Shown here in pieces: positions 481 through 30,940 of a DNA stretch of 30,940 nt. The translations under genes were made by a program, and so were the position numbers. Each line of letters opens with the position of its first letter. The stretch's first letter is position 1. This DNA is from a bacterium (GTDB lineage: Bacteria; JACRDZ01; JAQUKH01): NCBI GenBank assembly GCA_028719205.1, contig JAQUKH010000030.1, forward strand, positions 1 to 30,940. The letters are read 5' to 3'. The notes under the pieces are model-generated. The model was not told where the DNA came from and did not search any database. It saw nothing but the letters and a program-made list of their open reading frames with translations.

Positions 481-1251
481 TTATTTCTGATTTTTACGTT
501 TTTCTTCTTTTTGTTTTTCCATGGACATTATAGAAGAATGTTTCATTTCTTTGCGAAAATCCTTAGCGTTTATTTCAACTACATGGCACATTTCATAAAG
601 ACGGGACCGGAGACGGGTGCCTATACGGTTTTCCAGTGTTTCATCGGTTTTAACCGCCGGTTCATCGAGGTAATTAGATGTAAAAATGGTGATTTTCTTA
701 TCGTTATATCTTTGATTGATAATATAGGATAAGGTGTCCTGAACCCAGTTTGTGATCTTACTCGCGCCTAATTCATCCAGAACAATTACCTCTTTTTGGA
801 AAATAGGCTTTAAAACCTCTAATTCCGACGTCTGGGCTTGCGCATTATAGGAGTTTTGGATCTCCTTTAAAAGGTCGCGGAAATCGTAGAACGCGCAGGG
901 GATACACTTTTGTTTTATGAGTTCTTTGATAATTGCCACGGCAAGATGTGTTTTTCCCGCTCCAGGCTGGCCGATAAATATAAGCCCCGCTTGTACGACC
1001 GGGTATTCCCTGACAAAATCGGAGGCGATCTTTTTAGCCTGCCCCAGAGACGATGTAAGTTCATAAAAGCTCTCAAAATCGCAGTGTTGGTACCGTTTAG
1101 GAATACGTGATTCTATTAAAAGCCGTTCACTTATCCGGGAATAAAAACAGCTGCAGCGTTTTACCGCTTCAACATCATCTTCCTTAACAACTTCCCAGCC
1201 GGCACCATTGCATTTTGGGCAAATTTCTGGTTTTTCTATCTTTTTTTTCAT
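481..1251 (-). CDS. DnaI/DnaC-like helicase loader (IstB-type AAA+ ATPase with N-terminal zinc ribbon)
   Basis: 256 aa. N-terminal CPKCNGAGW...CSC zinc-ribbon. Walker A GQPGAGKTHLAVAI, Walker B VLVLDELG and the sensor region FTSN are typical of the DnaC/IstB/DnaI family. The zinc-binding N-domain plus AAA+ layout matches DnaI-type loaders. Confidence 0.65.
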   Translation of the reverse strand: MKKKIEKPEICPKCNGAGWEVVKEDDVEAVKRCSCFYSRISERLLIESRIPKRYQHCDFESFYELTSSLGQAKKIASDFVREYPVVQAGLIFIGQPGAGKTHLAVAIIKELIKQKCIPCAFYDFRDLLKEIQNSYNAQAQTSELEVLKPIFQKEVIVLDELGASKITNWVQDTLSYIINQRYNDKKITIFTSNYLDEPAVKTDETLENRIGTRLRSRLYEMCHVVEINAKDFRKEMKHSSIMSMEKQKEEKRKNQK

Positions 1252-8737: not shown

Positions 8738-9940
8738 TTATCGTGTTTTTAATTGTACTATGCGGCTTATTACATTACCGTATTTATCAGCAAGGGCTGT
8801 GAAAGCAGGGCCGGCAGTCTGAGTACTTGTAATATATATTGTACCCGGATAAGTATATGTGATCGTAGCGCCAGCAGCTGTTGCATATGTACTGAAATGC
8901 GGTGTAAGTGTAAGCGTTAAGTTACTATTAGAAAGAGCCGCGGTAACATTGCTTGCGGCAGCGGTATCAAATACTGCGCCTGAAGCGCCGGATAATGTTC
9001 CAACAAACGTGGATTCGAATCCAGTTGTTAAACTTACGGCCTGATTAAATGTCAAAGTAAGAACACCCGTACTGTCAATAGTACCGGGTACAGAGTTTGA
9101 AGCAATATTAACATAAAGATTAGGATCTAAATTAGCTAATGCAATGGTTTGATCTACTTTATTGGTTCCGATAATAAACGAGGCTCCAGCGGCTCCGCCA
9201 AGTTGCTGACCCTGGAAAGTTAACGGATCAACAGTAACAGTATATTGTCCACCCAAAACAAGGGTTGAATCGGCAAATGTAGCTATACCGGCTGAGTCCG
9301 TTGTAGCGGATACATTCGGCATTAATCCCGCTGATGCAAGCAATCTGTTGCCGGTTTCAGCAATAGGAGTACTACCTGTAATATTCTGTTGTAAACGAAC
9401 GGTTGCGCCGCTAACGACTCTGGCGAAAGGATCTGTCACTTTGACAGTAACACTGCCTGCAGTAGTTCCTGTAGGGAAAAGATAAATATTCCCCAGCATA
9501 TTATATTTACCATCTACTCTCATAGAATCAGTCTTATCCGCGAATGTATTTACTGATAACGCGTTAGGAGTGACATTCCCTTTAAAATCTTGATAACCGT
9601 CTCTTGTAACGACTAATTGATATATTATATTTCCGGCATAAAGGTTAAATGGGATATTGTTATATGCGTAAAACCCATAATCCCTGTCATTAGTGTCGGT
9701 TACTAATACATCAGGATCACGGCGGTCTGAACCTTGATATAGACGCATTTTAAGAAGATCATTACCACCAAGGCGGCTGCCGGTTACGGCGTCAAAAATG
9801 AAGCCCTGTAAGGTTCCTGTTTTATTAAATTCACCGGATACTACATTATCACCTTTTTCTCCTTTGAAATTATCACATCCACTCGAGATTGCTGCTATAA
9901 ACAGCACAGCAAATAAAAATAATCCTAATCTTTTCATCAT
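8738..9940 (-). CDS. Thr/Ser/Gly/Ala-rich surface lipoprotein with Ig-like beta-strand repeats
   Basis: 400 aa. Lipobox AISSGC. Composition is dominated by T, S, G, A, V and N, with repeated beta-strand-like segments (TVTVDPLTF, TLTLTP, ITYTYPGTIYITST). Strong AAGGAGA ribosome binding site. A candidate promoter TTGATA-N17-TATATT lies at 10047-10075. Confidence 0.6.
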   Translation of the reverse strand: MMKRLGLFLFAVLFIAAISSGCDNFKGEKGDNVVSGEFNKTGTLQGFIFDAVTGSRLGGNDLLKMRLYQGSDRRDPDVLVTDTNDRDYGFYAYNNIPFNLYAGNIIYQLVVTRDGYQDFKGNVTPNALSVNTFADKTDSMRVDGKYNMLGNIYLFPTGTTAGSVTVKVTDPFARVVSGATVRLQQNITGSTPIAETGNRLLASAGLMPNVSATTDSAGIATFADSTLVLGGQYTVTVDPLTFQGQQLGGAAGASFIIGTNKVDQTIALANLDPNLYVNIASNSVPGTIDSTGVLTLTFNQAVSLTTGFESTFVGTLSGASGAVFDTAAASNVTAALSNSNLTLTLTPHFSTYATAAGATITYTYPGTIYITSTQTAGPAFTALADKYGNVISRIVQLKTR

Positions 9941-10104: not shown

Positions 10105-13100
10105 TTATTTTTCCTCCGACAAACGGCGGAAATATCCCTCCACAAGTTCGCGGTATTCTAAAGGTATTTTATCCTCCTGCATATTTTCTATCTCGGACAA
10201 AATTTTCTTTTTGATGTCTTTAAAAGAATCCGGCAGGTCCTTTGGAGCTTCATTAATTCCAAAGTCCTGTCCGGTGGTTGATTTCCATTCTTTTCCTGCC
10301 TCGCGCTGCCTGATGGATTTCTGGGCGTCGAGCAGTCTTGTTAATATTTTCCGCTGTCTTTGCTGTACTTTTTCATCGGCTTCTTTGTTTTTTAATCCTT
10401 TTTCCACTTCTTCCATATCGCTTAAAGTCCCCCCGAAACTTCCTGATTTTTCGGAAAGAGACTGCATTTGTTTTTCCAATTCCTCCAGGGCCTGTTTAAT
10501 AAGGGATTGTTCAAACGCCATTTGCTGAAAAATATTTTCTTCCTGCGGGTTTAACCCTCCATTTTTTTTCATCAATCTATCAAGTTTTTTGGTAAGCTCA
10601 TTCAGATTTTCCTGCCGTTCGGAAAGTTTTTTCAATTCCTCCATAAATGAACCCGATCCGCCTCCGGGGGGGGCGTCTGAAAGGTCCTCATGCAGTTTAA
10701 TTAAATAAAGGGTTATACTGTTAACCTTTCCCATGCCTTCTTTCCCAAAGGAAAGCGCCTCCGGGGTTTGCCCGTTTTTCAATGCCTCAATGGACTGGCT
10801 GAGATTATCCTGAGCCTTTCGAATATTATCGGCTAAATGAGGATTAATAAATATAAATTTTTTTGATAATTCTTTGTATTCTTTTTCAAAAAGGTTGACA
10901 CCTTGTTTGAGGTTGTTTTCCTTTCCTGCCAGTTCCTGCCGTTTTTCTTCACTGACGCCTGACCGGGATTCGGATAAATTTTTTCTTGTCATTTCGTTTA
11001 TTTCATTTCCTGATGATGAAATTATCAGTCCGTAATCAATGGCCTTTTCAATAGCGGATAAAATTTCCTGCATGGATTTTTCTTTAAAATCTTCCTGTAT
11101 TTTGCTGAGTTTTTTGGAGAGGCCTTTTAACTCAGACGATATTTTCTCGTCAATTTTTTTACCGCCTTTTTTAACCGCGGATTCAAGCTCTTTTGTCAGC
11201 TCATCCATTTTCTTTTCTAATTCATTTTTTTCCATTTCATTGCTTGCCTCTTTGAGGCTTTCTGAAGTTTTTTTATCCATCTCTTTCAGGTCTTTGCTTA
11301 GTTTTTCAAGGTCATTTTTCACATCGTTAGTTTCTTTTTTTATGGATTTTTCTTCACTTACCGCTTTATCATCAGGGAAGATGTTTTTTTCCTGGCGGTT
11401 TGCCAATTTATCAACCTCATTAATTAAGGCCTCCAGTTTCTGTTCCGCAAGGGTTCGTTTTAATAAATTAAGCGTGCGGTCTATCTTTTCTTCGAATTCC
11501 TTTTGGTTAAAATTGGTTTCCATAAGTGATTTTTGTTTTTCTGAAAGGTTAGTCTGCTGCAGCGCTTTATTTATCTTCTCCATTAATTCTTTCATTTCAG
11601 CGGTTAAAACCTCATTGATCAGCTTTTGGATTTCAGCGATCTTTTCCAAAGTGTCTTCCTTAATAAAAGTACTCTTGGACAGCCTGTCAGTAGTGGTTTT
11701 CATATTTTTTAATATGTTCTCCAGATTCTCTTTGACTTTTTCCTCGCCTTTATGTATTGATTCCAGTTCTTTTTCTTTTGCCCAGTCAAATTCTTCCCCC
11801 TGGCTCATGCTGTTGATAAATTTTTCGGTCTTTTCTTTCAGGTCCTTTTGTTCCTTCAGGACATTCTGAAGTTTCAGGTTTTCAGACGTTTGGCTGTCTT
11901 CCGTGTCTTTATAGATCTCGAATAAAGAAGGAAAACGGATCTGGTAAGTATCAGACTTCCCGATATTCGGGCCGCTGATATTGTCATTGTCTTTTGCCTC
12001 AATATGATAGATTATTGTATCTCCCGGAAGAAAACCGAGCCCGGCTAAATTCCAGATGTAATCAAAAACAAGACTTTTATCCTGCGGACTTCCGGGTTTT
12101 TGCGTAAGCAGTATAGAGGCGGTTTCATTCCGGCTTAATATTTCAGCTTTTAATTCCACTGTGTCAATTCCATAGTCATCAAGCACGGAAATTTTTAACG
12201 GAACGATCATCCGCTCATCAATTGTTATATCTTTCCCCGGCTCAATTATTTTTACATCCGGAGGGTTGTCTAAGACAGCGTTAATTTTATATTGAGGGGA
12301 TTCGTTTGTGTATCCGTCTTTATCAAAAAGCTCAATATAATAGTTATCATCTTTTTTGACGGTTAACTCACCGCTTGCCTTGTTTTTCCGGATATTCATG
12401 GATATCTTTTTACCCGAAGGGAATTTCAGGCTCGCTGACTTAAGCTCTTTATTGCAGTCGATATTGATCTTTGCCCTGGTTCCGGTTATGGCTTTGATCC
12501 AGTTATCATTAACCGTTTTGGGAGGCAATTTTGTGTATTCAGGAAAAATAAGATCAACCTTAAGGTCGCGAATCTCAGGCTTTTCAATGATTTGAATAGT
12601 ATACTCAGGCGATTTCATATCTCCATGTGTAACATAATATTTTGTATCTTGTGTAATTTGAGAGAGCAGGGTCTGGTGTTTTGTATTTGTGATCCTGTTA
12701 AGGTCCTGAGTTTTTATTTCATTTCCGTTTGTCCAATAGAATATTTTTACATCGTTAAGGCTGGTCTTCAGGGAAAAGGCGGTTATCTCAATATCGTTTC
12801 CCGGAAATATTTTTGCGTTTCCCGGCGATATCTTTAACGGTATAGAGGGTGATACATTTTGAAACTCATTAGAAAAAAAAGACGAAGTCCCCGCGAACAT
12901 ATCGGGCGATATAATTATCAGCAATAATAAAAGCCCGGCCGCCGCGGCAAATATCCTAAGATCGTTTTTAAGGGGTTTCGCGGAAACAGCGTTTTTAAAA
13001 TTATACTTTGCAATAAGTTGTTCGGTATTTTCCAGATACGCGGAAATAAGGTTAAGAGAGTAACCATAGGTGTTATTATTAAAATATTTTTTTAATTGGA

Positions 13101-13410
13101 TATAATTGATAATTGTATATTTTAATTGCGGGATCTGATTCTCTATCAGAAAAGCTGTTTTCTCCGCGTTATATTTTTTGAAAACAGGGATCTGTAGAAA
13201 AACAAATATAAGTATGAAAAACAAAAAGGATCCGAATCTAAGGAGAGAAAGGAAACTGTAATTAGCATTGAACAAATTAATTATTGGCGTGATCGCAATA
13301 ACAAAAAACAGCGAGACGGTGAGGAATAAGATCATACCCTTGATGAATTCAATTCCCTTCAGCCTCAAAGAAAAATTATAAAGTTTTTGTTCCACAGTTT
13401 CCTTATTCAT
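10105..13410 (-). CDS. 1101-aa membrane-anchored giant coiled-coil protein (Lys/Glu-rich)
   Basis: Three N-terminal hydrophobic helices (ILFLTVSLFFVIAITPIINLF, FLFFILIFVFLQIPVF, IFAAAAGLLLLLIIISP). Then a beta-rich region of about 350 aa. Then more than 500 aa of heptad-like K/E/L/Q-rich sequence (EKQKSLMETNFNQKEFEEKIDRTLNLLKRTLAEQKLEALINEV...) with a short GGGSGS hinge. Codon usage is consistent across the whole frame. Confidence 0.65.
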   Translation of the reverse strand: MNKETVEQKLYNFSLRLKGIEFIKGMILFLTVSLFFVIAITPIINLFNANYSFLSLLRFGSFLFFILIFVFLQIPVFKKYNAEKTAFLIENQIPQLKYTIINYIQLKKYFNNNTYGYSLNLISAYLENTEQLIAKYNFKNAVSAKPLKNDLRIFAAAAGLLLLLIIISPDMFAGTSSFFSNEFQNVSPSIPLKISPGNAKIFPGNDIEITAFSLKTSLNDVKIFYWTNGNEIKTQDLNRITNTKHQTLLSQITQDTKYYVTHGDMKSPEYTIQIIEKPEIRDLKVDLIFPEYTKLPPKTVNDNWIKAITGTRAKINIDCNKELKSASLKFPSGKKISMNIRKNKASGELTVKKDDNYYIELFDKDGYTNESPQYKINAVLDNPPDVKIIEPGKDITIDERMIVPLKISVLDDYGIDTVELKAEILSRNETASILLTQKPGSPQDKSLVFDYIWNLAGLGFLPGDTIIYHIEAKDNDNISGPNIGKSDTYQIRFPSLFEIYKDTEDSQTSENLKLQNVLKEQKDLKEKTEKFINSMSQGEEFDWAKEKELESIHKGEEKVKENLENILKNMKTTTDRLSKSTFIKEDTLEKIAEIQKLINEVLTAEMKELMEKINKALQQTNLSEKQKSLMETNFNQKEFEEKIDRTLNLLKRTLAEQKLEALINEVDKLANRQEKNIFPDDKAVSEEKSIKKETNDVKNDLEKLSKDLKEMDKKTSESLKEASNEMEKNELEKKMDELTKELESAVKKGGKKIDEKISSELKGLSKKLSKIQEDFKEKSMQEILSAIEKAIDYGLIISSSGNEINEMTRKNLSESRSGVSEEKRQELAGKENNLKQGVNLFEKEYKELSKKFIFINPHLADNIRKAQDNLSQSIEALKNGQTPEALSFGKEGMGKVNSITLYLIKLHEDLSDAPPGGGSGSFMEELKKLSERQENLNELTKKLDRLMKKNGGLNPQEENIFQQMAFEQSLIKQALEELEKQMQSLSEKSGSFGGTLSDMEEVEKGLKNKEADEKVQQRQRKILTRLLDAQKSIRQREAGKEWKSTTGQDFGINEAPKDLPDSFKDIKKKILSEIENMQEDKIPLEYRELVEGYFRRLSEEK

Positions 13411-13543
13411 AACGATAAATTATTATACCATAAAAATATTATTTTAATATCATAGGCCTTTTTTATTATATGGAATGTTGCGGGGGAAAGGGGTGAAAAG
13501 TAGTGGAGTGTTTCCGATTATGCTGTTTTGTGCATAAAAACAC

Positions 13544-13576
13544 TTGACAAACAGTATTGTTAATAGTATTATTAAC
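13544..13576 (+). promoter_or_regulatory. sigma70-like promoter TTGACA-N17-TATTAT with overlapping palindromic operator GTTAATA-gtat-TATTAAC upstream of the Phd/YefM antitoxin gene
   Basis: -35 TTGACA at 13544-13549, exactly 17 nt, then -10 TATTAT at 13567-13572. The inverted repeat at 13559-13576 overlaps the -10. AGTATT is repeated four times across 13552-13596. The site is 40 nt upstream of the ATG at 13613 and is typical of an autoregulated TA operator. Confidence 0.5.
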
Positions 13577-13612
13577 AGTGTTATAAAAAGTATTATATGG
13601 AAAGGTTGTTAA

Positions 13613-13867
13613 ATGGATTATAAAATATCTGCGAATGAACTAAAGACAAAAGGCGTATCGGCTATAAAAGAAGCTACTGCTAATTATCCGGAGGCAGTTA
13701 TAACGGTAAGGGGTAAGAGCCGTTATGTTGTTATTCCAATCGAATCATATAATCATTTGAGGGAATGTGAACTGGAAGCCGCTATTATTGAATCCAAGAA
13801 AGATATAAAAAATGGTAAATATGTCCAGGAAAGTGTTGAAGATCACATTAAAAGACTAGTGCGCTGA
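13613..13867 (+). CDS. Phd/YefM-family type II antitoxin
   Basis: 84 aa. ...ISANELKTKGVSAIKEATANYPEAVITVRGKSRYVVIPIESYNHL matches the Phd/YefM core (ITkrGkpvaVvvsveeYe). Confidence 0.7.
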   Translation: MDYKISANELKTKGVSAIKEATANYPEAVITVRGKSRYVVIPIESYNHLRECELEAAIIESKKDIKNGKYVQESVEDHIKRLVR

Positions 13868-13913
13868 TAAATTAATTTTGATGCGATAGAATGCCCAGAT
13901 TTGAGACAATTTC

Positions 13914-14086
13914 AACGAACGACGACGCAGGCGTATCCTCTGCGATACGTCAAGGAGGAGTGAGGCAGAAATTGGCCAAAGATGGGTATTCCCGAAGGGC
14001 AGAGGTTCTTTTGCCCCGCTTCTGCGTTGCTCGTCGCTAACATACCGCAGAGGGTATGCTATGCTCCTCGTGCCTTGAATCAGGCC
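13914..14086. repeat. GC-rich, highly structured about 170-bp insertion separating antitoxin and toxin genes
   Basis: Abrupt GC-rich island in AT-rich DNA. It contains two similar local hairpins: cgtatc-ctctgc-gatacg (13933-13950) and catacc-gcagag-ggtatg (14041-14058). There is long-range complementarity between cgacgacgcag (13920-13930) and ctgcgt-tgc-tcgtcg (14021-14035), plus ccc-gaa-ggg and ggccaaag...cttttgcc pairs. The 5' end tttcAACGAAcg resembles the TTTTAACGAA end of the attC-like family at 25-30 kb. Confidence 0.5.
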
Positions 14087-24085: not shown

Positions 24086-24340
24086 TTAGAAATCAGATAT
24101 GGGTTTATCATTTGACGATAAGTTCCCGGGAAATTTATGAGCTAATTCCTTTCCGTCATAAATACCAAAACCAATTTCGATATCACGTTGTTCATCCATA
24201 CTTTTTCTATAAGACAAATTGTAATCACCTAAGCCTCCTCCATAAGAAAACACTATTCCAATTTTATCTTTTGCACTTAAACATGGTGCAGTTCCAAAAA
24301 TGATTAAACTTGTTATTAGTACAACTTTTAAAATTCTCAT
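24086..24340 (-). CDS. small secreted hypothetical protein
   Basis: Start is taken at the internal ATG 24340 (MRILKVVLITSLIIFGTAPCLSA..., a signal peptide), which is preceded by AAGGAGAACT. The longer 24478 start would overlap the upstream gene by about 95 nt. Confidence 0.4.
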   Translation of the reverse strand: MRILKVVLITSLIIFGTAPCLSAKDKIGIVFSYGGGLGDYNLSYRKSMDEQRDIEIGFGIYDGKELAHKFPGNLSSNDKPISDF

Positions 24341-24383
24341 AGTTCTCCTTCTTTTAAAATATAAGTTTATTTTCGATAAGAAA

Positions 24384-25040
24384 TCAAGAAATCCAGCACA
24401 TAAAACGGCCAATTTCTTTCCAAATATTGTTTTTCTTTTCGTAAAGAATATAATAACCTGCGCCACTTGTGGGCCCAATCATGAAACCGGCATATAACAA
24501 AGCTTGTGTTTTATCTTGATTAAATCCAACTCGCGATAAAGTTGTAACACCAAGTAATTGCGCACTTGGAAAACGATTATATAACTTTTCACTAAAAATA
24601 GAAGTAGAATCTCCACTTAACAAAATTTGATTTTCTAATTCTTCAGTAAGAAAAATATATTCATTCTCAATGGGAATAACACAGTTCAAAGTTGATGATT
24701 CTTGATTTCTTTTCCAGAAATCTTTAAACGTATCCGGTAAGATATTGACAATTTTAAATTTCTCAAAAAATACAGACAAAAAGGTAAAATGATTTTTTTC
24801 ATCTTTATATTTGTTTTTACCAGATGTATCTATTGGAATATCCATTTCGGTTTTATCTTTAATAATTAAAACAGGTTTTTCTTTTGGTTCCTTGTTGTGT
24901 TTAGTTTTTTGTTCAATAAATGCATTAAAATATATAGAGTAAATTAGAGCTTCATCAGAGTGATTAGAAATATCGGCAGCAACAGTAAATGATAATTTAA
25001 AAAAAGAAATAATTATAATTGTGCATAAAATTTTCTTCAT
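24384..25040 (-). CDS. secreted hypothetical protein (terminal cassette-like ORF)
   Basis: 218 aa. Signal peptide MKKILCTIIIISFFKLSFTVAA. No recognisable family. It lies immediately downstream of the relic attC-like element. Confidence 0.5.
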   Translation of the reverse strand: MKKILCTIIIISFFKLSFTVAADISNHSDEALIYSIYFNAFIEQKTKHNKEPKEKPVLIIKDKTEMDIPIDTSGKNKYKDEKNHFTFLSVFFEKFKIVNILPDTFKDFWKRNQESSTLNCVIPIENEYIFLTEELENQILLSGDSTSIFSEKLYNRFPSAQLLGVTTLSRVGFNQDKTQALLYAGFMIGPTSGAGYYILYEKKNNIWKEIGRFMCWIS

Positions 25041-25097
25041 ATTATTTTTTACTACAGCCGCACTGTACTCGGCGCCGGTTACAACGTTTTGTTAATT
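25041..25097 (-). repeat. degenerate/relic attC-like site (R'' AATTAAC overlapping the stop codon; the L arm is degenerate and no R' end is present)
   Basis: The minus strand reads attaacaaaacgttgtaaccggcgccgagtacagtgcggctg. This aligns with the R''-proximal half of the 28.4-28.6 kb site (AACAAg...CCGaCGCCGAGTACgGcGCGGCTG). The outer stem is broken (cagccg vs ccggtt) and no GTTRRRY end precedes the next start codon. Confidence 0.45.
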
Positions 25098-25522
25098 TAT
25101 TTTATGACAACACATTCCTTTGGTTCGAGATTTTTTGCCATTGACCAAACAGTGGCCGCCATTTCTTTGACCCGAAATACGGCAATGCACTCTTGCCCAT
25201 ATTGAGCGACTATCGGCTTGAGGAAAGGCCTTTGTGAAATAATTTCCTCTCTTAACTTACTATCGTTTTCAGGTACGGCAATTCCGCTGACGCGGACTTG
25301 TACCAAATTCTGCGGATCGCCATTATGAAAACATAACTCAATATTAGGATTTGTCCGGAGCTGCTTATACAGGTCTCTCATCACGCCCGTGTGAAAAATA
25401 ATGCCTTTCTCATCAGCCCTATACATCCACATCCCGCGAACATGGGGTTTGTTATTAACGCACGTTGCCAACGCGCAAGACATATTTTTGTTAATGAACT
25501 CCAAGATTTCTTTCTGTGTCAT
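25097..25522 (-). CDS. pyridoxamine 5'-phosphate oxidase-like FMN-binding split-barrel protein (cassette ORF)
   Basis: 141 aa. ...SCALATCVNNKPHVRGMWMYRADEKGIIFHTGVMRDLYKQLRTNPNIELCFHNGD matches the PNPOx-family core. Its AGGAG ribosome binding site begins 6 nt after the attC R' GTTAGAA. Confidence 0.65.
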   Translation of the reverse strand: MTQKEILEFINKNMSCALATCVNNKPHVRGMWMYRADEKGIIFHTGVMRDLYKQLRTNPNIELCFHNGDPQNLVQVRVSGIAVPENDSKLREEIISQRPFLKPIVAQYGQECIAVFRVKEMAATVWSMAKNLEPKECVVIK

Positions 25523-25538
25523 ATTGTTCTCCTTTAAG

Positions 25539-25596
25539 TTCTAACGCCAAAGCTCACTGGCGGCGTACTCGCCGTCCAGTGAAGCGCCAGTTAGGC
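25539..25596 (-). repeat. integron attC-like recombination site (58 bp)
   Basis: The minus strand reads R'' GCCTAAC (plus 25590-25596), 11 nt after the brnA stop, and ends with R' GTTAGAA (plus 25539-25545). The centre is cactgg-cggcg-tact-cgccg-T-ccagtg with a single bulged T on the plus (bottom) strand. Confidence 0.7.
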
Positions 25597-25607
25597 TATT
25601 TTATTTA

Positions 25608-25823
25608 TTAAGCCGCTTTCCATTGCAAAGAAAGCCTGCGACTTGAAGCGGCACAATCACGCAAATAGAGATTGATCAGGGTTTGATATGGTATTTCTGC
25701 TTCTTCCGAAAGTTTTTTGAAATACTTAATTGTGTCCTCATCAAGCCGGATTGTAACCTGTTTTTTTAGGCGGCTAGCATATGGATTTTTTTTGGCTTTT
25801 GAAAAATCGTATTCTTTTCTCAT
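25608..25823 (-). CDS. brnA: BrnA-family antitoxin (RHH/CopG-like)
   Basis: 71 aa. KKQVTIRLDEDTIKYFKKLSEEAEIPYQTLINLYLRDCA matches BrnA. The last about 12 residues (SSRRLSLQWKAA) are read from the GC-rich attC-like element. Confidence 0.75.
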   Translation of the reverse strand: MRKEYDFSKAKKNPYASRLKKQVTIRLDEDTIKYFKKLSEEAEIPYQTLINLYLRDCAASSRRLSLQWKAA

Positions 25824-25826
25824 TTT

Positions 25827-26111
25827 TTACCTCCAATATTGTTTCTGTTCTGAACGGGTTGCTTTACGAGCAGATATAATTCTTATTACTTCATCATTCT
25901 TCTTATAACAGTGACAAACAACTAAAATACGAAGGTTAGAACTCAACCCAAGAAGTATAAATCTGTCCTCTTCATCCGAATGATCCGGGTCATGGAGAAG
26001 CAAGGCATTTTCATCAACGAATACTGTTTGGCCTTCCTCAAAGGATATACCATGTTTCTTTATGTTTGAAGTGTTTTTGTCCTTATCCCATTCAAATGAT
26101 ATGTTTGCCAT
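25827..26111 (-). CDS. brnT: BrnT-family toxin (ribonuclease)
   Basis: 94 aa. FEWDKDKNTSNIKKHGISFEEGQTVFVDENALLLHDPDHSDEEDRFILLG...LRILVVCHCYKKNDEVIRIISARKATRSEQKQY matches BrnT (FEWD..K...N..KHGv.FeEa..vF.D.......D..HS..E.R...iG). Confidence 0.8.
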   Translation of the reverse strand: MANISFEWDKDKNTSNIKKHGISFEEGQTVFVDENALLLHDPDHSDEEDRFILLGLSSNLRILVVCHCYKKNDEVIRIISARKATRSEQKQYWR

Positions 26112-26117
26112 ACTTAC

Positions 26118-26146
26118 ATTGTAACTACATTATAATGTTTTGTCAA
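26118..26146 (-). promoter_or_regulatory. cassette-internal promoter TTGACA-N17-TACAAT driving brnTA, 6 nt upstream of ATG (leaderless-type)
   Basis: Minus strand: TTGACA (plus 26141-26146), 17 nt, TACAAT (plus 26118-26123), then gtaagt and the ATG at 26111. There is no Shine-Dalgarno. The predicted transcription start coincides with the start codon. Confidence 0.5.
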
Positions 26147-26165
26147 TTTTATTTATAATTTATCT

Positions 26166-26225
26166 GTCTAACGCTAAAAAATCAGGCGTGGCTATAGGCC
26201 ATCGCCTGCATTGCCCTTGTTAAAA
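26166..26225 (-). repeat. integron attC-like recombination site (60 bp)
   Basis: The minus strand reads R'' TTTTAAC (plus 26219-26225), 11 nt after the DUF2442 stop, and R' GTTAGAC (plus 26166-26172). The centre is caggcg-tggc-tatag-gcca-T-cgcctg with a bulged T. Confidence 0.7.
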
Positions 26226-26236
26226 TCTTCTATTTA

Positions 26237-26479
26237 TTATTTAATAGTTTGTCCTACTTCGTAGAGGAAATCAGGTGAGAAATCAGCATTATTTGGCCAA
26301 ACTACAGTATCTATATCTTTATTGAGAGTTACGTTTTTAAAATATGAGATATCCTTTAGAGGCTCAAATATTTTTCCGTCAAGATATGATTTTAAATCAA
26401 CTATTTTATATTCATTATTTTCAAATTTTACTTTTAATTTATGTCCGTCAACATATTTTACATCAGTTATCCAATGCAT
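26237..26479 (-). CDS. DUF2442-family small protein (partner of DUF4160; TA-like pair)
   Basis: 80 aa. ITDVKYVDGHKLKVKFENNEYKIVDLKSYLDGKIFEPLKDISYFKNVTLNKDIDTVVWPNNADFSPDFLY matches the DUF2442 pattern (v.f.dG....vDL.p.L.G..F.pL.d...F..v......gtv.WPNGaD..Pe.L). Confidence 0.7.
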   Translation of the reverse strand: MHWITDVKYVDGHKLKVKFENNEYKIVDLKSYLDGKIFEPLKDISYFKNVTLNKDIDTVVWPNNADFSPDFLYEVGQTIK

Positions 26480-26490
26480 AAAATAACCTC

Positions 26491-26751
26491 CTATACTAAA
26501 GGTTCAATCTTTTTAAGTTCGTCTTTCCTTTCAACCAATTCCCAATCTTCCAGTAATTCTTCACGATGCAGAAAAGCCCATTCTAAAACAAGTGAAATTA
26601 TTCTTTTTGGTAAGTCACCTTCAATAAGCTTTAATTCATTTATAGAAAAAGATGCTCTGAATTCACCATACTTAGCATGAAAATGCGGTGGTGTATGTTC
26701 ATTATAATACATCGAAATTATTATTCCTAAAAATCTGGAGATTTCTGGCAT
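26491..26751 (-). CDS. DUF4160-family small protein (partner of DUF2442; TA-like pair)
   Basis: 86 aa. MPEISRFLGIIISMYYNEHTPPHFHAKYGEFRASFSINEL...LPKRIISLVLEWAFLHREELLEDWE matches DUF4160 (MP.is.F.Gi.I.my..dH.PPHfHa.Y). Confidence 0.7.
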   Translation of the reverse strand: MPEISRFLGIIISMYYNEHTPPHFHAKYGEFRASFSINELKLIEGDLPKRIISLVLEWAFLHREELLEDWELVERKDELKKIEPLV

Positions 26752-26847
26752 TAATCTTCCTTTCTGCTGAAATTATATCATATTTTATATATTTGTTATT
26801 CAGATTTTATAAAAGTTCAAATAGTTGGGATTGTTCCTAAATTTTAT

Positions 26848-26906
26848 TTTTAACGAATAAATCAGCGGTGCCGCTATGCGGTATCCGCTGCATGATGTTG
26901 TTAAAA
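26848..26906 (-). repeat. integron attC-like recombination site (59 bp)
   Basis: R'' TTTTAAC (plus 26900-26906) and R' GTTAAAA (plus 26848-26854). The centre is cagcgg-tgccg-ctatg-cggta-T-ccgctg with one inner-stem mismatch and a bulged T. The site starts 90 nt after the stop of the upstream ORF. Confidence 0.65.
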
Positions 26907-26995
26907 TCTTATTTTTTATATCTTCCCTTTTTGTTTATCGATGAAATAAAAGAGGGGTTAGGAAAGTTTAAATAGTTAAGAGCGTCCCCTATCTC

Positions 26996-27733
26996 TCAAT
27001 TGGATATAGATAAAGTTTTTGTTCTTGTTGGAGTAACAGAATCATTTTCATAAATTTCAATTGTTTTAGTATATGGACCGTCCCAGAAGGAAATATTCAT
27101 ATCATTATTTTTCGATTCTGATATAAAAACTCCTGTCGCTCCAAACATTCCTCCTATATTATTAGGATCATATTCAATCCAGCCTAAAGGATCCTTCGCC
27201 CAAATATCTTCTGAAGTTAATATAACTACTTTTAACTTAGCTCCCTCAATAAGTTCAGCTCTCAAACTATATGATTTACGAGTTATGATGTTAATTGAGT
27301 TTTCTCCTAAGATATTATTTCCGTAAATGCCTGTTTCAGGATAAGTAATGCCGGAAGTACCTGCTCCTTTAATAGTAAAAGTATAAAGGTTTTCGTCTAA
27401 ATCGTTATTTTTTATAAGTATGGAGGCAGTTTGTTCTTCTTTATTTTTAGGATTATAATTGATACTAAAAGTTTGCCTTGCGCCTAATGGAATAATCATT
27501 GAAGAAGGTTGAGTCAAAGTGAATACATTGCTATCACTTGTTAAAGTTATGTTGTCGCTTATTATTAAGTCATTATTGCCATTATTCTCTATCGTAAAAG
27601 TTATTGTCGTACTTTGATTAATTTTAATACTTCCGAAGTCATAAATTCCGCCTGAAGATATATCAGTATTCCCTACCTTCAGGATTAGTTAGTTTTGCAC
27701 CAGTGTTTTCATCTACATTCGTATTTGGGTACA
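26996..27733 (-). pseudogene. disrupted cassette ORF encoding an Ig-like/ASH-like beta-sandwich domain (in-frame TAA at 27689-27691)
   Basis: The ORF track gives only a TTG-initiated 173-aa ORF (26996..27517). The same frame reads on upstream without ATG or GTG as ...LILKVGNTDISSGGIYDFGSIKINQSTTITFTIENNGNNDLIISDNITLTSDSNVFTLTQPSS..., so the domain begins before the called start. An in-frame TAA follows MYPNTNVDENTGAK (ATG at 27733). The gene looks nonsense-interrupted. Confidence 0.4.
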
Positions 27734-27832
27734 TTGATCCTGAGGTTATTAGAAAAATTGAAAATCAATACCACCCCCCACCCGTGTTTAGTTAATTTTG
27801 TCATATGAATATTCCCTTTTTTATTTTTCTAT

Positions 27833-27889
27833 TTTTAACATTTGAGCTCAGGCGTGCCGTTAGGCGTCGCTTGAAGCGATTCGTTAAAA
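27833..27889 (-). repeat. integron attC-like recombination site (57 bp, slightly degenerate)
   Basis: R'' TTTTAAC (plus 27883-27889) and R' GTTAAAA (plus 27833-27839). The centre is caggcg-tgcc-gtta-ggcg-T-cgcttg with two stem mismatches. The bulged T is retained. Confidence 0.6.
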
Positions 27890-27956
27890 TCTTAATCTGT
27901 AAATCTTTTTTTGGTGTACTAATTCAATTCTGTTATCGAGCTGCTCCTTAAGTATG

Positions 27957-28385
27957 TTAGTTTCTTCCCATTTCAATTAGAAGAAATATATTCCCTTCTT
28001 TATCTTCTACATATCTCCAAAATGGCGATTTGAAATGAATTGAGGCCGCAACTACTTCTTGTTGCTTATATCCTTCAGCACTTGCTCGAACAATAAATTG
28101 TCTTTCTCCTATGTCTGGACATTTACTTAAGAAGAATTTCCATGGGATTCTGAATTTACCTTTTTTATCAATTTTAAAAGTATATGTTTTTGTATTTTCC
28201 TTAACAAGAAATCCTTTTTCATGGATTTCTAAAACAATTTTAGCATCAATTATAGGTTCGTTATTATCTTTACTTACAATTTGCCCATAAATTGTTTTGG
28301 TAAAATTTTGTTCACAACCAGATATAGAGAAAACAATTATAAAAAATATTAATAATTGTAAATAGATACTAATTTTATTATTCAT
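27957..28385 (-). CDS. cassette-encoded lipoprotein, hypothetical
   Basis: Start is placed at ATG 28385 (MNNKISIYLQLLIFFIIVFSISGC, a lipobox), 11 nt after attC R' GTTAAAT. The ORF-track start at 28460 would read 25 extra residues out of the attC-like element. Confidence 0.55.
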   Translation of the reverse strand: MNNKISIYLQLLIFFIIVFSISGCEQNFTKTIYGQIVSKDNNEPIIDAKIVLEIHEKGFLVKENTKTYTFKIDKKGKFRIPWKFFLSKCPDIGERQFIVRASAEGYKQQEVVAASIHFKSPFWRYVEDKEGNIFLLIEMGRN

Positions 28386-28396
28386 AGATATTTTCA

Positions 28397-28622
28397 ATTT
28401 AACAGCGAGTTGAGCGAAATTGAACTGGACTGGCATGCTTGCATGCCAAGACCAGGGCAATTTGCGCTCGAACGATTTGTTCGACCGCGCGAATCAGCGC
28501 GCGGTCGGACTAATCGGGCGAGTGCGTACGCGCAACTCGCTGTTCGGGCGCGCGCAGCGCGGCCGAACGCCCGAAACTCAGCCGCGCCGTACTCGGCGTC
28601 GGCTGGAGTGCACTTGTTAAAA
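28397..28622 (-). repeat. atypical long (226 bp) attC-like site with about 165-bp GC-rich structured insert
   Basis: Canonical ends: R'' TTTTAAC (plus 28616-28622) and R' GTTAAAT (plus 28397-28403). The R''-proximal arm is cagccg-cgccg-tact-cggcg-T-cggctg, a perfect stem with a bulged T. Between the arms lies very GC-rich sequence with perfect hairpins: gaccgcgcg-aatcag-cgcgcggtc, ggcatgc-tt-gcatgcc, and cgggcg...cgcccg. Confidence 0.6.
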
Positions 28623-28659
28623 TCTTAAATTGTAAAAGTATCTCACAAATTTAAAGAGC

Positions 28660-28878
28660 CTAGATATTTTTTAGTATTTCTTCAGCAGAATAAAAATGAG
28701 CTTTTTTATTTTTTTCTTTTATTTCAAATGTTTCAATCTCTTTCCTGTCTACCAGATTTTCGTACATCTCTATCATTGATTTCTTTAACAGTTTTGAACG
28801 GTCTTCGTCGTAATAAGTTTCTAATTTTTTTAAAACTTTTTCTTCATATGGATTAAATCTTACAGATATTACAGCCAT
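28660..28878 (-). CDS. ribbon-helix-helix antitoxin (DUF6290-like)
   Basis: 72 aa. MAVISVRFNPYEEKVLKKLETYYDEDRSKLLKKSMIEMYENLVD matches the DUF6290/RHH pattern (M.tisiRlneeEeklik.yA...g.s.Sefir.a.le.iEd). It overlaps the 3' end of the RelE-like gene by 10 nt. Confidence 0.6.
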   Translation of the reverse strand: MAVISVRFNPYEEKVLKKLETYYDEDRSKLLKKSMIEMYENLVDRKEIETFEIKEKNKKAHFYSAEEILKNI

Positions 28879-29138
28879 TGTTTATAAACCTCCTCTCGTT
28901 TTGCTATACTGATAATGAAGTAATCCTCATTTTCAATGTAGAATATCGCTCTGAACTTGTTTTTTCTCATTCTATAATATGTCCGTGCTTCATTTGATTT
29001 TAATCGCTTTATATCAAATAAGTTCAGATCTTTTGTTGTTTCCAAGGCAATAAATGCGTGATGAAATAATTGAAAAACCTCTTTAGGTATTTTTCCTTTC
29101 TTTAAATTCCGTAATACTTCATCTTCGTATTTAATCAT
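28869..29138 (-). CDS. RelE/ParE-family type II toxin
   Basis: 89 aa. ...IKRLKSNEARTYYRMRKNKFRAIFYIENEDYFIISIAKREEVYK matches the RelE core (l.g...g.yelRvg.yRiiY.i.d....il.i.hRkdvY). The toxin precedes its antitoxin, a higBA-like order. Confidence 0.7.
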   Translation of the reverse strand: MIKYEDEVLRNLKKGKIPKEVFQLFHHAFIALETTKDLNLFDIKRLKSNEARTYYRMRKNKFRAIFYIENEDYFIISIAKREEVYKQWL

Positions 29139-29144
29139 GTATAC

Positions 29145-29173
29145 ATTGTAATACTTATATTTATTTTTGTCAA
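29145..29173 (-). promoter_or_regulatory. cassette-internal promoter TTGACA-N17-TACAAT, 6 nt upstream of the RelE-like ATG (leaderless-type)
   Basis: Minus strand: TTGACA (plus 29168-29173), 17 nt, TACAAT (plus 29145-29150), then gtatac and the ATG at 29138. Same architecture as the brnTA cassette promoter. Confidence 0.5.
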
Positions 29174-29219
29174 GTTGTTTTTCGATAGGTGGGGAAGAAT
29201 TTAGTTATTTTATTCTTAT

Positions 29220-29279
29220 TTTTAACGTTGAAAACTCAGGCGCCGCCATAGGCGGTCGCCTGAAGTGCCCTTGTTAAAA
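29220..29279 (-). repeat. integron attC-like recombination site (60 bp)
   Basis: R'' TTTTAAC (plus 29273-29279), 2 nt after the ParE-like stop, and R' GTTAAAA (plus 29220-29226). The centre is caggcg-ccgcc-ata-ggcgg-T-cgcctg, perfect stems with a bulged T. Confidence 0.7.
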
Positions 29280-29281
29280 TT

Positions 29282-29575
29282 TTAATTTATTCTATCAGCC
29301 CAATAGTTAGGTTTTCTGTGTAAATGTGCAAATGCAAGAACAACAATTATGTCATTTTGTATTGAATAAATTATTTTATAGGGAAATTTATGAACTAAAT
29401 ATTTTCTGGTTTCTTTACGCTCAGGTGGCCATGCAAGAGGGAATTGCTGGATATGAAGAAGTGATTGCTCAATTTTATTTTCAAATTTGGTGCCTAAACC
29501 GGTTTGTTCTATTTCATAAAACTCTTTAGCCTCATTAAATTCAAATTGGGCAATTTTAAGAATTCTTATTTCCAT
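29282..29575 (-). CDS. ParE/RelE-family type II toxin
   Basis: 97 aa. ...QQFPLAWPPERKETRKYLVHKFPYKIIYSIQNDIIVVLAFAHLHRKPNYWADR matches the ParE C-terminal core (fPy.iiY.i.d..i.il.v.H..r.p.yw). Confidence 0.7.
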   Translation of the reverse strand: MEIRILKIAQFEFNEAKEFYEIEQTGLGTKFENKIEQSLLHIQQFPLAWPPERKETRKYLVHKFPYKIIYSIQNDIIVVLAFAHLHRKPNYWADRIN

Positions 29576-29577
29576 AG

Positions 29578-29787
29578 TTATTTTTTGGTAAACATTTCCT
29601 CAAGAGAAACAGTTTTTAATTTCCCAGCTTTATAGGCTTTCAGTCTTTTTTCTGCTTCATCTGCCCAAATTTTTTCAATTTCAGGATCTGGGACATCAAG
29701 ACTTTTCATTAACGCTTCAATAACTATGGATTTTTCCGCTGGTTTAAGATTTAATGCTTTTGATATTATTTGTTTTGTTGGTGACAT
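29578..29787 (-). CDS. putative addiction-module antitoxin (TIGR02574-like component)
   Basis: 69 aa. LKPAEKSIVIEALMKSLDVPDPEIEKIWADEAEKRLKAYKAGKLKTVSLEEM matches the TIGR02574 pattern (L...eR..L...Ll.SL......i...W..Ea.rR......G). It lies 2 nt upstream of the ParE-like gene. AAGAGG ribosome binding site. A possible TATAAT sits at plus 29823-29828 (minus strand). Confidence 0.65.
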   Translation of the reverse strand: MSPTKQIISKALNLKPAEKSIVIEALMKSLDVPDPEIEKIWADEAEKRLKAYKAGKLKTVSLEEMFTKK

Positions 29788-29868
29788 AATTTATACCTCT
29801 TAAATATATTTATTTCTTCTGAATTATAGCACAAAATATCTTAATATATTAATTTTTCTAATTTTCAT

Positions 29869-29927
29869 TTTTAACGCCGGAAATCACTGGCGGGCTACTG
29901 CCCGTCCAGTGCATTGAAATGTTGGGA
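29869..29927 (-). repeat. integron attC-like recombination site (59 bp)
   Basis: R'' TCCCAAC (plus 29921-29927), 8 nt after the ParE stop, and R' GTTAAAA (plus 29869-29875). The centre is cactgg-cgggc-tact-gcccg-T-ccagtg. It has the same outer stem as the 25.5 kb site but a compensatorily changed inner stem (cgggc/gcccg vs cggcg/cgccg). Confidence 0.7.
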
Positions 29928-29935
29928 ATCTTAAT

Positions 29936-30232
29936 TTATTTTATATAATTTTTTAATTCCATTGCGCCATGGAAGACACCAAGAATATCTATTCTCTGCG
30001 GATCATTAATTAAGTAAGCAATTCTATAATGTGTATAGTATATTACTCTCACATTTTCCTTGTTTATATCTTGGTATATCCCGCCAATTTCTGGGAATAG
30101 TTTTAATATTTGCGCTTTTTCACGTATTTTTGCTACGACATTTTTTGCTGCTCTGGGATTGTCTAGTGTGATGTAATCATGAATGTTTTTTAAGCAGGAT
30201 TTTGCTTCATCGGTCCAGTTCAATTTTACCAT
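29936..30232 (-). CDS. ParE/RelE-family type II toxin
   Basis: 98 aa. MVKLNWTDEAKSCLKNIHDYITLDNPRAAKNVVAKIREKAQILKLFPEIGG...VRVIYYTHYRIAYLINDPQRIDILGVFHGAMEL matches the ParE pattern (W...A..dl..i..yi...np.aA......i......L..fP..G...........Y.i.Y.i......v.il.v.H). Confidence 0.7.
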   Translation of the reverse strand: MVKLNWTDEAKSCLKNIHDYITLDNPRAAKNVVAKIREKAQILKLFPEIGGIYQDINKENVRVIYYTHYRIAYLINDPQRIDILGVFHGAMELKNYIK

Positions 30233-30405
30233 TTTTCAATTTCTCTACCCAAATCTTCATCGGATGTAATTTTATTTAATTGAGAATCCCTGATTCCTCT
30301 TTCAACCATACGTTTAAACAGTAATTCCTTTATAAGTTCATCGTATGAAACATCATCAGGCAGGTCATCTATTATTTTTTTAGCATTATCTTTTATTGAT
30401 AACAT
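30226..30405 (-). CDS. small antitoxin-position protein (59 aa) overlapping the ParE start; not in the ORF track
   Basis: Manual translation of the minus strand gives MLSIKDNAKKIIDDLPDDVSYDELIKELLFKRMVERGIRDSQLNKITSDEDLGREIEKW*. An AGGAG ribosome binding site lies 5 nt upstream of ATG 30405. The stop TAA overlaps the ParE ATG (AAATGGTAA), which is classic toxin-antitoxin coupling. Confidence 0.55.
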   Translation of the reverse strand: MLSIKDNAKKIIDDLPDDVSYDELIKELLFKRMVERGIRDSQLNKITSDEDLGREIEKW

Positions 30406-30461
30406 ATTTAGCTCCTTTCCTATGCTTATATTTTACCATAGTAAGGCAATTATTTTTGGAT

Positions 30462-30839
30462 TTATTTTTTATTCAAGGGAAAAATTTTATCGAAAATATT
30501 ATTATATGACAAATAAATGTTAAGGTGTTTTTTAAATATTTGCTTAGACTTATCAATTTGTTCACTGAACCAAATAATTTCTTTATCTATTTCTTCGTGT
30601 GTTGCAATCTTATCTTTATTGGGACCTTCTAGGATTTGTCTTTGTTTGCGAAGATTTAAACCATGTTTAAAAATTTCATTAATATAATCTGATATCTCTT
30701 GGCTTTCGAATAAAAAATCTGCCTCCGAAACAGAGTTTCGAAACCCGATAAGGTCGTTTAAGTCAGGCCGGTCATTTACAAAAGAAATACTTAATATCTT
30801 CTTAATTTCTTCGTAGATTTTAAGTCGTCGTTCATACAC
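30462..30839 (-). CDS. hypothetical protein (GTG start; first visible cassette ORF)
   Basis: 125 aa. The frame is closed upstream by TGA, so GTG at 30839 is the first usable start. No recognisable family. No attC-like site separates it from the downstream antitoxin/ParE pair. Confidence 0.4.
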   Translation of the reverse strand: MYERRLKIYEEIKKILSISFVNDRPDLNDLIGFRNSVSEADFLFESQEISDYINEIFKHGLNLRKQRQILEGPNKDKIATHEEIDKEIIWFSEQIDKSKQIFKKHLNIYLSYNNIFDKIFPLNKK

Positions 30840-30940
30840 TGCAGCTTTTGTTCAGAACCTTCGCCGTATGCTTCGGCATTTATTATCACCTGATGTTTTT
30901 TATCAGCCACCGCTATTCCATTATAGCCTTGTATTACTCC

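Follow-up and report, generated by a model that had tools for sequence, protein, structure and literature searches.

An integron-type array of toxin–antitoxin gene cassettes and attC sites next to gmk in a candidate-phylum bacterium

Introduction

The last ~6 kb (from 25.0 kb onward) of contig JAQUKH010000030.1, which belongs to a bacterial metagenome-assembled genome (MAG), is filled with short minus-strand genes and GC-rich imperfect palindromes that follow them. Are these palindromes attC sites, i.e., the recombination sites of integron gene cassettes, or intergenic repeats of another kind, and to what type of element does the region belong? We analyzed the entire contig, 30,940 nt in length, which is referred to below as the window. 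An original prediction, made from the sequence, had described the region as an integron-type cassette array of attC-like sites. We found that this description holds: the fold of the sites, the covariation of their paired positions, and the match of a covariance model built from them to attC_aadA1 all agree with it. We estimate the probability at about 0.92 that 25.0–30.4 kb is a genuine integron gene-cassette array next to gmk, with a unit that consists of a short gene or a toxin–antitoxin (TA) pair followed by an attC site.

The R boxes of attC sites carry AAC/GTT triplets, their central spacers of ~5–6 nt are unpaired, and the total length is 57–141 bp (Nivina et al. 2016, PMC5027507). According to the same source, the first extrahelical base, located in L'', is "usually G", the furthest one is a conserved T, and there is a 6-bp stem between them. 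If the sites of the window behave like the rest of this family, each attC would fold into an imperfect hairpin when the plus strand is single-stranded, and an integron integrase would recognize the hairpin and cut the GTT core at G|TT; cassettes could thus be excised as circles and then reinserted. The array reads from right to left on the minus strand, and its recombination would be carried out by an IntI enzyme.

Sites and core sequences

Two covariance models were used. The first model (R1) was built from seven window sites only, without any class-1 integron sequence. The second model (R2) is broader and includes 28 sites from the window, three environmental arrays, and class-1 integrons. 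The array comprises eight attC sites and one decayed site; seven of the eight are short (57–61 nt) and one has a length of 89 nt. The seven short sites, A to G, lie in AT-rich DNA in one orientation, and each one closely follows a gene or gene pair of the minus strand. They were recovered where the original prediction had placed them, with R1 scores of 59–72 bits versus 12 bits elsewhere. The sites are as follows (scores are from R1 unless indicated; z is the folding score against dinucleotide shuffles):

29869–29927, minus strand: attC A, after the antitoxin/ParE pair; R'' TCCCAAC, R' GTTAAAA; 67 bits with both R1 and R2; z -3.15; the plus strand folds
29220–29279, minus strand: attC B, after the Unstab_antitox/ParE pair; R'' TTTTAAC, which pairs with R' GTTAAAA; 72.5 bits; z -4.22
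28562–28622, minus strand: attC C, after the RelE-like/DUF6290 pair; R' GTTCGGC; 70.9 bits; z -3.03
28397–28485, minus strand: attC C', 89 nt, described below; 19.7 bits with R2
27833–27889, minus strand: attC D, after the lipoprotein gene; 59.1 bits; z -2.08; G-T wobbles on the plus strand only
26848–26906, minus strand: attC E, after the disrupted Ig-like gene; 61.5 bits; z -4.39
26166–26225, minus strand: attC F, after the DUF4160/DUF2442 pair; R' GTTAGAC; 71.6 bits; z -3.47
25539–25596, minus strand: attC G, after the BrnT/BrnA pair; R'' GCCTAAC, R' GTTAGAA; 70.3 bits; z -5.25

The eight neighboring sites are 165–985 nt apart, and the cassettes have lengths of 649, 658, 165, 564, 985, 682, 627, and ~500 nt. 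On the strand of the open reading frames (ORFs), the 5' cores are TTTTAAC (five sites), GCCTAAC, and TCCCAAC, and the 3' cores are GTTAAAA, GTTAGAA, GTTAGAC, and GTTCGGC. Only the AAC/GTT triplets are invariant in the seven short sites and C', while the four outer positions covary or pair in most sites. The RYYYAAC...GTTRRRY consensus that had been proposed for the cores did not survive: the strict pattern matches none of the sites and yields one chance match at 22 kb, because the outermost base is mostly T/A; a relaxed pattern, YYYAAC...GTTRRR, retrieves six sites together with two chance matches. The placement of a ribosome binding site and ATG directly after the core was correct for site G, in which R' GTTAGAA abuts AGGAG and the ATG of the next gene. 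The GC-rich cassette that comes next provides the R' of site C, GTTCGGC. In pairwise comparisons, the attC sites of the window are 47–80% identical (mean 60%).

Fold, covariation, and model tests

The short sites share a fold on the plus strand, in which a 7-bp AAC/GTT box is followed by spacers, a 3-bp box, a bulged base, a 6-bp stem, a bulged T, a stem of 4–6 bp, and a loop of 3–5 nt; the unpaired spacers have 5–7 nt on one arm and 4–6 nt on the other. When folded as single-stranded DNA, every short site was better than its dinucleotide shuffles (z from -2.1 to -5.3), and the minimum-energy fold of site B displays the complete attC architecture. In the alignment of the seven sites, 94% of the cells are paired on the plus strand, and compensatory changes are found in 10 of the 14 stem pairs; the covariation score was reached by none of 500 shuffles, and sliding the partner by 1–3 columns reduced the pairing to 27–46%. 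For the wider set of 28 sites from five sources, in an alignment that was fitted to the model, the corresponding values are 92% paired and 15 of 21 pairs compensatory. The bulged T is present in all seven window sites and in 27 of the 28 sites overall, and it lies 6 bp from the first bulge in all of them. It should be noted that G-T wobbles (sites D and E) exist on the plus strand only and that the extra bases are located opposite its AAC triplet, which identifies the plus strand as the structured strand. This strand lies opposite the minus-strand genes and is the equivalent of the attC bottom strand. Because the hairpins are bulged, a generic inverted-repeat finder did not detect them.

R1 can also be applied in reverse, to integrons that did not contribute to it. 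On its own seven sites, R1 gives 59–72 bits on the plus strand versus 12–20 bits on the minus strand. Applied to two class-1 integrons, it matched attC_aadA1 over its full length, at all 60 positions, with 51.6 bits (E 3e-10), as well as attC_ereA with 27.4 bits, both on the strand opposite the cassette gene, and no further match was found in 24 kb of class-1 integron sequence. The aadA1 attC and its junction with the 3'-conserved segment are 100% identical in R100 and thousands of other plasmids. Elsewhere in the 30.9-kb window, with filters switched off, the best R1 match had 12 bits (E 2), and neither R1 nor R2 found a site in the other 25 kb. Copies scattered over the genome, which would have pointed to an intergenic repeat family, were absent from the DNA searched: there are none in window positions 1–25000, and the 14.7 kb of core DNA of a relative (L043/L044) contain no model matches.

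Integron recombination at G|TT makes a further prediction: since the six bases after G belong to the next cassette, the R'' of a cassette is expected to pair with the R' of the previous junction rather than with its own. This offset complementarity was found in four of the five informative junctions (offset versus own pairing: C, 7 versus 3; C', 6 versus 4; F, 7 versus 5; G, 6 versus 5; the value for C' was corrected by hand from the sequence). The exception is D (6 versus 7). All testable features of attC sequence and structure were found in the repeats, and their identification as attC sites is supported.

Site C' and a cassette without an ORF

The segment 28.4–28.6 kb had been taken for a single palindrome ending in GTTAAAT. 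It is, in fact, composed of site C, with the core GTTCGGC, and a 165-nt cassette with its own site, C', which had been overlooked:

28403–28567, minus strand: cassette without an ORF, 165 nt, with G|TT at both borders; GC 0.62 versus 0.29–0.32 in its neighbors

This segment starts exactly at the G|TT of site C and extends for 165 nt, after which GTTAAAT follows. It is a very short cassette without an ORF. The bottom strand of C' reads ATTTAAC AGCGA GTT GAGCG...CGCTC G AAC GATTT GTTCGAC; L'' has a G bulge, and the spacers are 5 nt long. C' was found by R2 only, as a full-length match of 19.7 bits (E 0.023 over the window), and its fold has a z of -4.72. For comparison, the same model gives 18.3 bits for attC_arr-2 and 15.9 bits for attC_dfrA1, which are real long attC sites. 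The 5' TTCGGC of the cassette pairs at six of seven positions with its own R'' GTCGAAC, as read from the sequence, and the leader of ~76 nt (28486–28567 was folded) is rich in GC hairpins. A GC content of 62% inside an array of ~30% GC suggests that the cassette was captured from a GC-rich donor. An alternative fold of C', a three-way junction of 150 nt with AACAGCGAGTTG/CAACTCGCTGTT as its closing stem, was also considered; this variant was dropped, as R2 and manual pairing agree on an 89-nt attC with a leader.

Cassette genes and promoters

Nine units are recognizable in the array, rather than the eight that had been counted, and five of the nine are TA pairs; this number of pairs is the one predicted, and the Pfam assignments agree. 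The genes are as follows:

29936–30405, minus strand: 59-aa antitoxin (30226–30405) and ParE toxin (29936–30232; ParE_toxin, E 1.3e-17)
29282–29787, minus strand: Unstab_antitox/TIGR02574 antitoxin (29578–29787) and ParE-family toxin (29282–29575), assigned by Pfam
28660–29138, minus strand: 89-aa putative RelE/ParE-like toxin (28869–29138) and DUF6290/RelB-like antitoxin (28660–28878)
27957–28385, minus strand: 142-aa predicted lipoprotein with lipobox ISGC; weak match to CarboxypepD_reg (E 4e-4, below the family cut-off)
26996–27803, minus strand: Ig-like gene of the HYDIN/VesB type, frameshifted; it breaks near a G-run at ~27775
26237–26751, minus strand: DUF4160 (26491–26751, E 1.6e-23) and DUF2442 (26237–26479, E 3.5e-15)
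25608–26111, minus strand: BrnT toxin (25827–26111) and BrnA antitoxin (25608–25823), assigned by Pfam
25097–25522, minus strand: PNPOx-like flavoprotein (PNPOx_N, E 4.2e-16), GC 0.42, the last recognizable cassette

The antitoxin at 28660–28878 matches DUF6290 with E 4e-11 and RelB_antitoxin with E 1.1e-6, the latter below the family cut-off. Its 89-aa partner matches no family and is a putative RelE-like toxin, judging by its size, its position, and the overlap of the two genes. The sequence of the Ig-like gene is identical in an independent contig from Logan (L001); the gene is either a real pseudogene or the product of a homopolymer error common to both assemblies.

The cassettes had been described as mostly promoterless. 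This is correct for the non-TA cassettes, since the promoter scan found no box before the lipoprotein, Ig-like, and PNPOx cassettes, but it does not apply to the TA pairs: promoter-like boxes precede four of the five, and two of these boxes are extended -10 boxes. The best boxes of the region, TTGACA-17-TACAAT with 11 of 12 consensus positions, are found before the RelE-like pair (29173–29145) and before the BrnT pair (26146–26118). Lacking a promoter box, the non-TA cassettes would depend on read-through.

Ends of the array and its setting

The following features lie at the two ends of the array:

24086–25040, minus strand: ORFs of 218 aa and 84 aa, both with a signal peptide, which separate the array from gmk; GC 0.28; no family match and no attC
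25041–25097, minus strand: relic H, decayed attC; R'' AATTAAC, center like that of C and D, R' lost (GTAAAAA)
30462–30839, minus strand: 125-aa ORF with no family match, flanked by the transposase remnant and the first TA pair
30791–30940, minus strand: truncated DDE transposase of the IS1182/IS5 type; its frame ends at 30791 and it runs off the contig end

The relic site at 25041–25097 is a decayed attC: its sequence is still significantly similar to sites C and D (global alignment versus shuffles, z 4.9 and 4.5), but it has lost the ability to fold (z -0.27), and the model match is partial, with 8 bits only. The two signal-peptide ORFs beyond it may be old cassettes with eroded attC sites. 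At the other end, 34 aa of the transposase remnant are 60% identical to residues ~190–225 of a 450-aa transposase with DUF772 and DDE_Tnp_1_6. The gene is cut at about its midpoint, in addition to the interruption by the contig end, and it is located ~1 kb upstream of the first attC. An attC-type site had been claimed after every minus-strand ORF; this is not the case, as the models found no match between the 125-aa ORF and the antitoxin/ParE pair, nor upstream of the first TA pair.

The left neighbors of the array are gmk, yicC, and moxR, convergently oriented, which indicates a chromosomal setting. The host is a candidate-phylum bacterium about which little is known; for its PhoH, the nearest named relatives are Poribacteria, Desantisbacteria, and Firestonebacteria, at 75–77% identity. 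In a relative with a PhoH identity of 89%, synteny with the window is lost past the ABC transporter. Short Logan contigs from SRR22315506 carry the same organism, and an exact look-up of five window proteins yielded a 2.7-kb Logan fragment identical to window positions 25800–28489. An extension past 30940 was sought in Logan, GTDB species genomes, and Joint Genome Institute (JGI) metagenomes, and these collections provided no sequence beyond this position; the contig is absent from the GTDB and JGI sets.

The left contig end carries a gene for an IstB-like AAA ATPase of the IS21 helper type (481–1251, minus strand). Given this gene and the transposase at the right end, both ends of the contig border mobile-element genes. 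A 217-aa ORF upstream of the IstB-like gene (1401–2054) has no Pfam match, and an inverted repeat at 1269–1385, with 51-nt arms that are 73% complementary, lies between this gene and the next ORF. Positions 13411–14055 form a long gap between divergent genes, in which a 12-nt unit occurs three times (13550–13596); the flanking ORFs of 1101 aa (10105–13410) and 400 aa (8738–9940) have no Pfam match.

Related loci and cassette traffic

The antitoxin/ParE module (window positions 29880–30444) was found at 80–93% nucleotide identity in 12 loci, the labels of which include Pseudomonadota, Kuenenia, Clostridia, Nitrospirae, and Actinomycetota MAGs. At the protein level, ParE homologues of ~80–92% identity occur in MAGs of several phylum- or class-level labels, and distant ones range down to 36%. 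Recurrence of a cassette at another locus, flanked by the same type of site, had been suggested as a check and was observed for this unit: in L013/L037, antitoxin, ParE, and attC are 93% identical over 544 nt, and the attC is identical from R'' to L', within a different array of another MAG. The ParE copy of L013/L037 contains an in-frame TAA. The array of L037 (7389–20516) is separate and co-oriented, with at least 17 attC-type sites (R1, 22–58 bits); it starts ~540 nt after nuoN, with no integrase upstream. Cassettes of L037 encode a cation-efflux protein, HEPN/NTP-transferase, a metallo-beta-lactamase fold protein, a GNAT acetyltransferase, and GyrI-like proteins.

ParE homologues are also directly followed by attC-like sites in L009, L010, L004, and L014, whereas no attC was found after the module in Kuenenia, in the Nitrospirae MAG, and in bacteria from upflow anaerobic sludge blanket (UASB) reactors. 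In L012, the module follows an IS91-like transposase and retains half an attC. The attC of L014 (1137–1208) is closer to site G (25539–25606, behind BrnA; 81% identity) than to site A, which suggests that attC sites and genes have been reassorted between cassettes. L004 contains an internally deleted remnant of an Xer/IntI-like tyrosine recombinase (877–1251), in which an N-terminal SAM-like segment is fused to a C-terminal catalytic motif ending in RSPLESL; it sits 200 nt downstream of a ParE cassette, the attC of which has lost R'.

Discussion

Several observations weigh against the interpretation of the region as an integron cassette array. No integrase, attI, or Pc promoter was found in the window. 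The first bulge, in L'', is A or C in six of the seven short sites and not the usual G; among the short sites only site C has the canonical G, and C' is the only other window site with it, while cytosine dominates at this position in the L037 array, too. The proximal unit holds the extra 125-aa ORF and the remnant of an insertion sequence (IS), with no attC upstream. The 5' limit of homology of the shared antitoxin/ParE module is located 20–40 nt upstream of the antitoxin start codon, and not at an attC junction, from which it follows that the TA unit has also been moved or rearranged by other means. A scan against Rfam, at gathering and at permissive thresholds, found nothing relevant, Rfam being without an attC family. 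Finally, the attC assignment is based on the reverse test with R1 and not on the curated attC model of IntegronFinder, and R2 depends on R1, so that it does not constitute separate evidence.

What else could the palindromes be? That they are repetitive extragenic palindromes (REP), miniature inverted-repeat transposable elements (MITE), or intrinsic terminators with no link to integrons is very improbable. They are indeed GC-rich hairpins after stop codons, with U-rich tracts on the mRNA strand at B and F, and a terminator scan picks up one of the sites, but terminators are not enriched (five found versus 3.9 expected). Elements of the REP or MITE type are not expected to keep a single orientation at gene 3' ends or to be confined to 25.0–29.9 kb, and none were seen in the other 25 kb or in L043/L044; nor would such elements account for conserved AAC/GTT boxes, bulges that keep a fixed distance and occur on one strand only, the offset pairing between cores, and the match of R1 to real attC sites. 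BrnT/BrnA and similar modules occur in pdif modules of Acinetobacter plasmids. Considering this and the five TA pairs, the region could be viewed as a TA island with modules bounded by Xer-type (pdif-like) or other recombinase sites. We regard this as scarcely credible, since the sites are bulged hairpins of 57–89 nt with uniform orientation, rather than 28-bp sites of the 11-6-11 type that alternate in orientation, and since both their sequence and structure match attC_aadA1. These readings, and a CRISPR (clustered regularly interspaced short palindromic repeats) reading as well, were ruled out by the orientation of the sites, their restriction to the array, the way in which the bulges are arranged, and the attC_aadA1 match.

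The cassette array can be compared with several known systems. The class-1 sites attC_aadA1/aadA7 (60 nt) are like those of the window in length, R box, spacers of ~5–6 nt, L box, bulges, stems of 6 bp and 5 bp, and a loop of 3–5 nt. In contrast to class-1 attC sites, the R boxes of the window are mostly TTTTAAC/GTTAAAA, in an AT-rich host, and the first bulge differs, as described above; the cassettes encode TA systems and unknown proteins instead of resistance genes, and there is no IntI1, attI1, or 3'-conserved segment. Similarly to the superintegron of Vibrio cholerae, the array is chromosomal and co-oriented, with related attC sites and many TA cassettes that have their own promoters (PMC4889954). 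It differs from the superintegron in having only 8 to 9 visible sites, with identities of 47–80% that are far from near-uniform, in the absence of a visible intI, and in the length of the sites, which is 57–61 nt versus ~120–130 nt for the V. cholerae repeats (VCRs). Another close parallel is the array of JAHIRJ010000071.1/Ga0180007_10002195 (L013, L037, L038), which has the same attC type, shares the Unstab_antitox + ParE-like and DUF4160 + DUF2442 cassette families, and shows no integrase. The other cassettes of L037 are all different, and L037 begins by the nuo operon, whereas the array of the window ends by gmk.

The absence of an integrase from the window, which had been stated from the sequence, was confirmed: no tyrosine recombinase was found in a Pfam scan of ~35 ORFs (those of the array and the larger ORFs across the window), and tblastn with IntI1 produced no match in the window, the contig ending ~1 kb upstream of the first attC. 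When the IntI1 search covered the window and ~250 kb of related loci, the sole match was the internally deleted Xer-like remnant in L004, which we reject as evidence of an integron integrase. There is no intI within 25 kb on the distal side, and the proximal side offers only ~1 kb of sequence. A cluster of attC sites lacking an integron integrase (CALIN) is defined by at least two attC sites, less than 4 kb apart, without intI nearby; a sedentary chromosomal integron is present in all strains of a species or has more than 19 attC sites (Cury et al. 2016, PMC4889954). On this contig, the array fits the working definition of a CALIN, with only ~1 kb that can be checked upstream. It also resembles the CALINs described in that study in having non-resistance or unknown cassettes, an IS at the border, and neither intI nor an intI pseudogene on the contig; the comparison is limited by the ~1 kb of upstream sequence that is available for the intI check.

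Is the array then an orphan or a part of a complete integron? The odds are roughly even that it is a true CALIN, from which an IS-mediated rearrangement or deletion removed the integrase, and that it would be mobilizable only in trans, if at all. A slight preference for an array severed from its platform comes from the truncated IS, the decay of the distal site, and the frameshifts in one cassette gene. At the upstream end of the array, the transposase is truncated at about its midpoint, the related L037 array begins ~540 nt after nuoN without an integrase upstream, and CALINs outnumber complete integrons in genomes (279 versus 164; PMC4889954). Against this reading, only ~1 kb is available upstream of the first attC, so that the integrase may sit beyond the IS or on another contig, and seven of the eight attC sites are structurally intact; with their sites in this state, the cassettes would remain substrates for a trans-acting integrase. 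More tentatively, the region may be the distal part of a complete sedentary chromosomal integron, with attI and, in divergent orientation, intI located past the IS at the right end, in line with the original prediction. The orientation of the cassettes points to the right, the setting beside gmk, yicC, and moxR is chromosomal, the TA-rich content is typical of chromosomal integrons (PMC4889954), and contig breaks at IS copies are common assembly artefacts. Conversely, the sequence ends at 30940, the transposase is truncated and not just interrupted by the contig end, the identity of the attC sites (47–80%, mean 60%) is less uniform than in classical large chromosomal arrays, and no collection that was searched extends the source contig. 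Two observations allow a further reading: two unrelated arrays, those of the window and of L037, lack an integrase at their inspectable ends, the upstream end of L037 lying directly beside nuoN, and the L'' bulge is mostly A or C, and not the G contacted by known IntI. It nevertheless appears very unlikely that attC-type arrays of this lineage are kept and exchanged without a linked integrase, via a trans-acting or different recombinase.

Chromosomal arrays rich in TA pairs, like CALINs, are common and have been described well, and the integron cassette array of the window is an ordinary example, which leaves the understanding of integrons unchanged. As a well-resolved array, it can serve in cataloguing the diversity of attC sites and the TA systems carried on cassettes. 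The 93%-identical unit that is common to two arrays shows cassette traffic in environmental communities.

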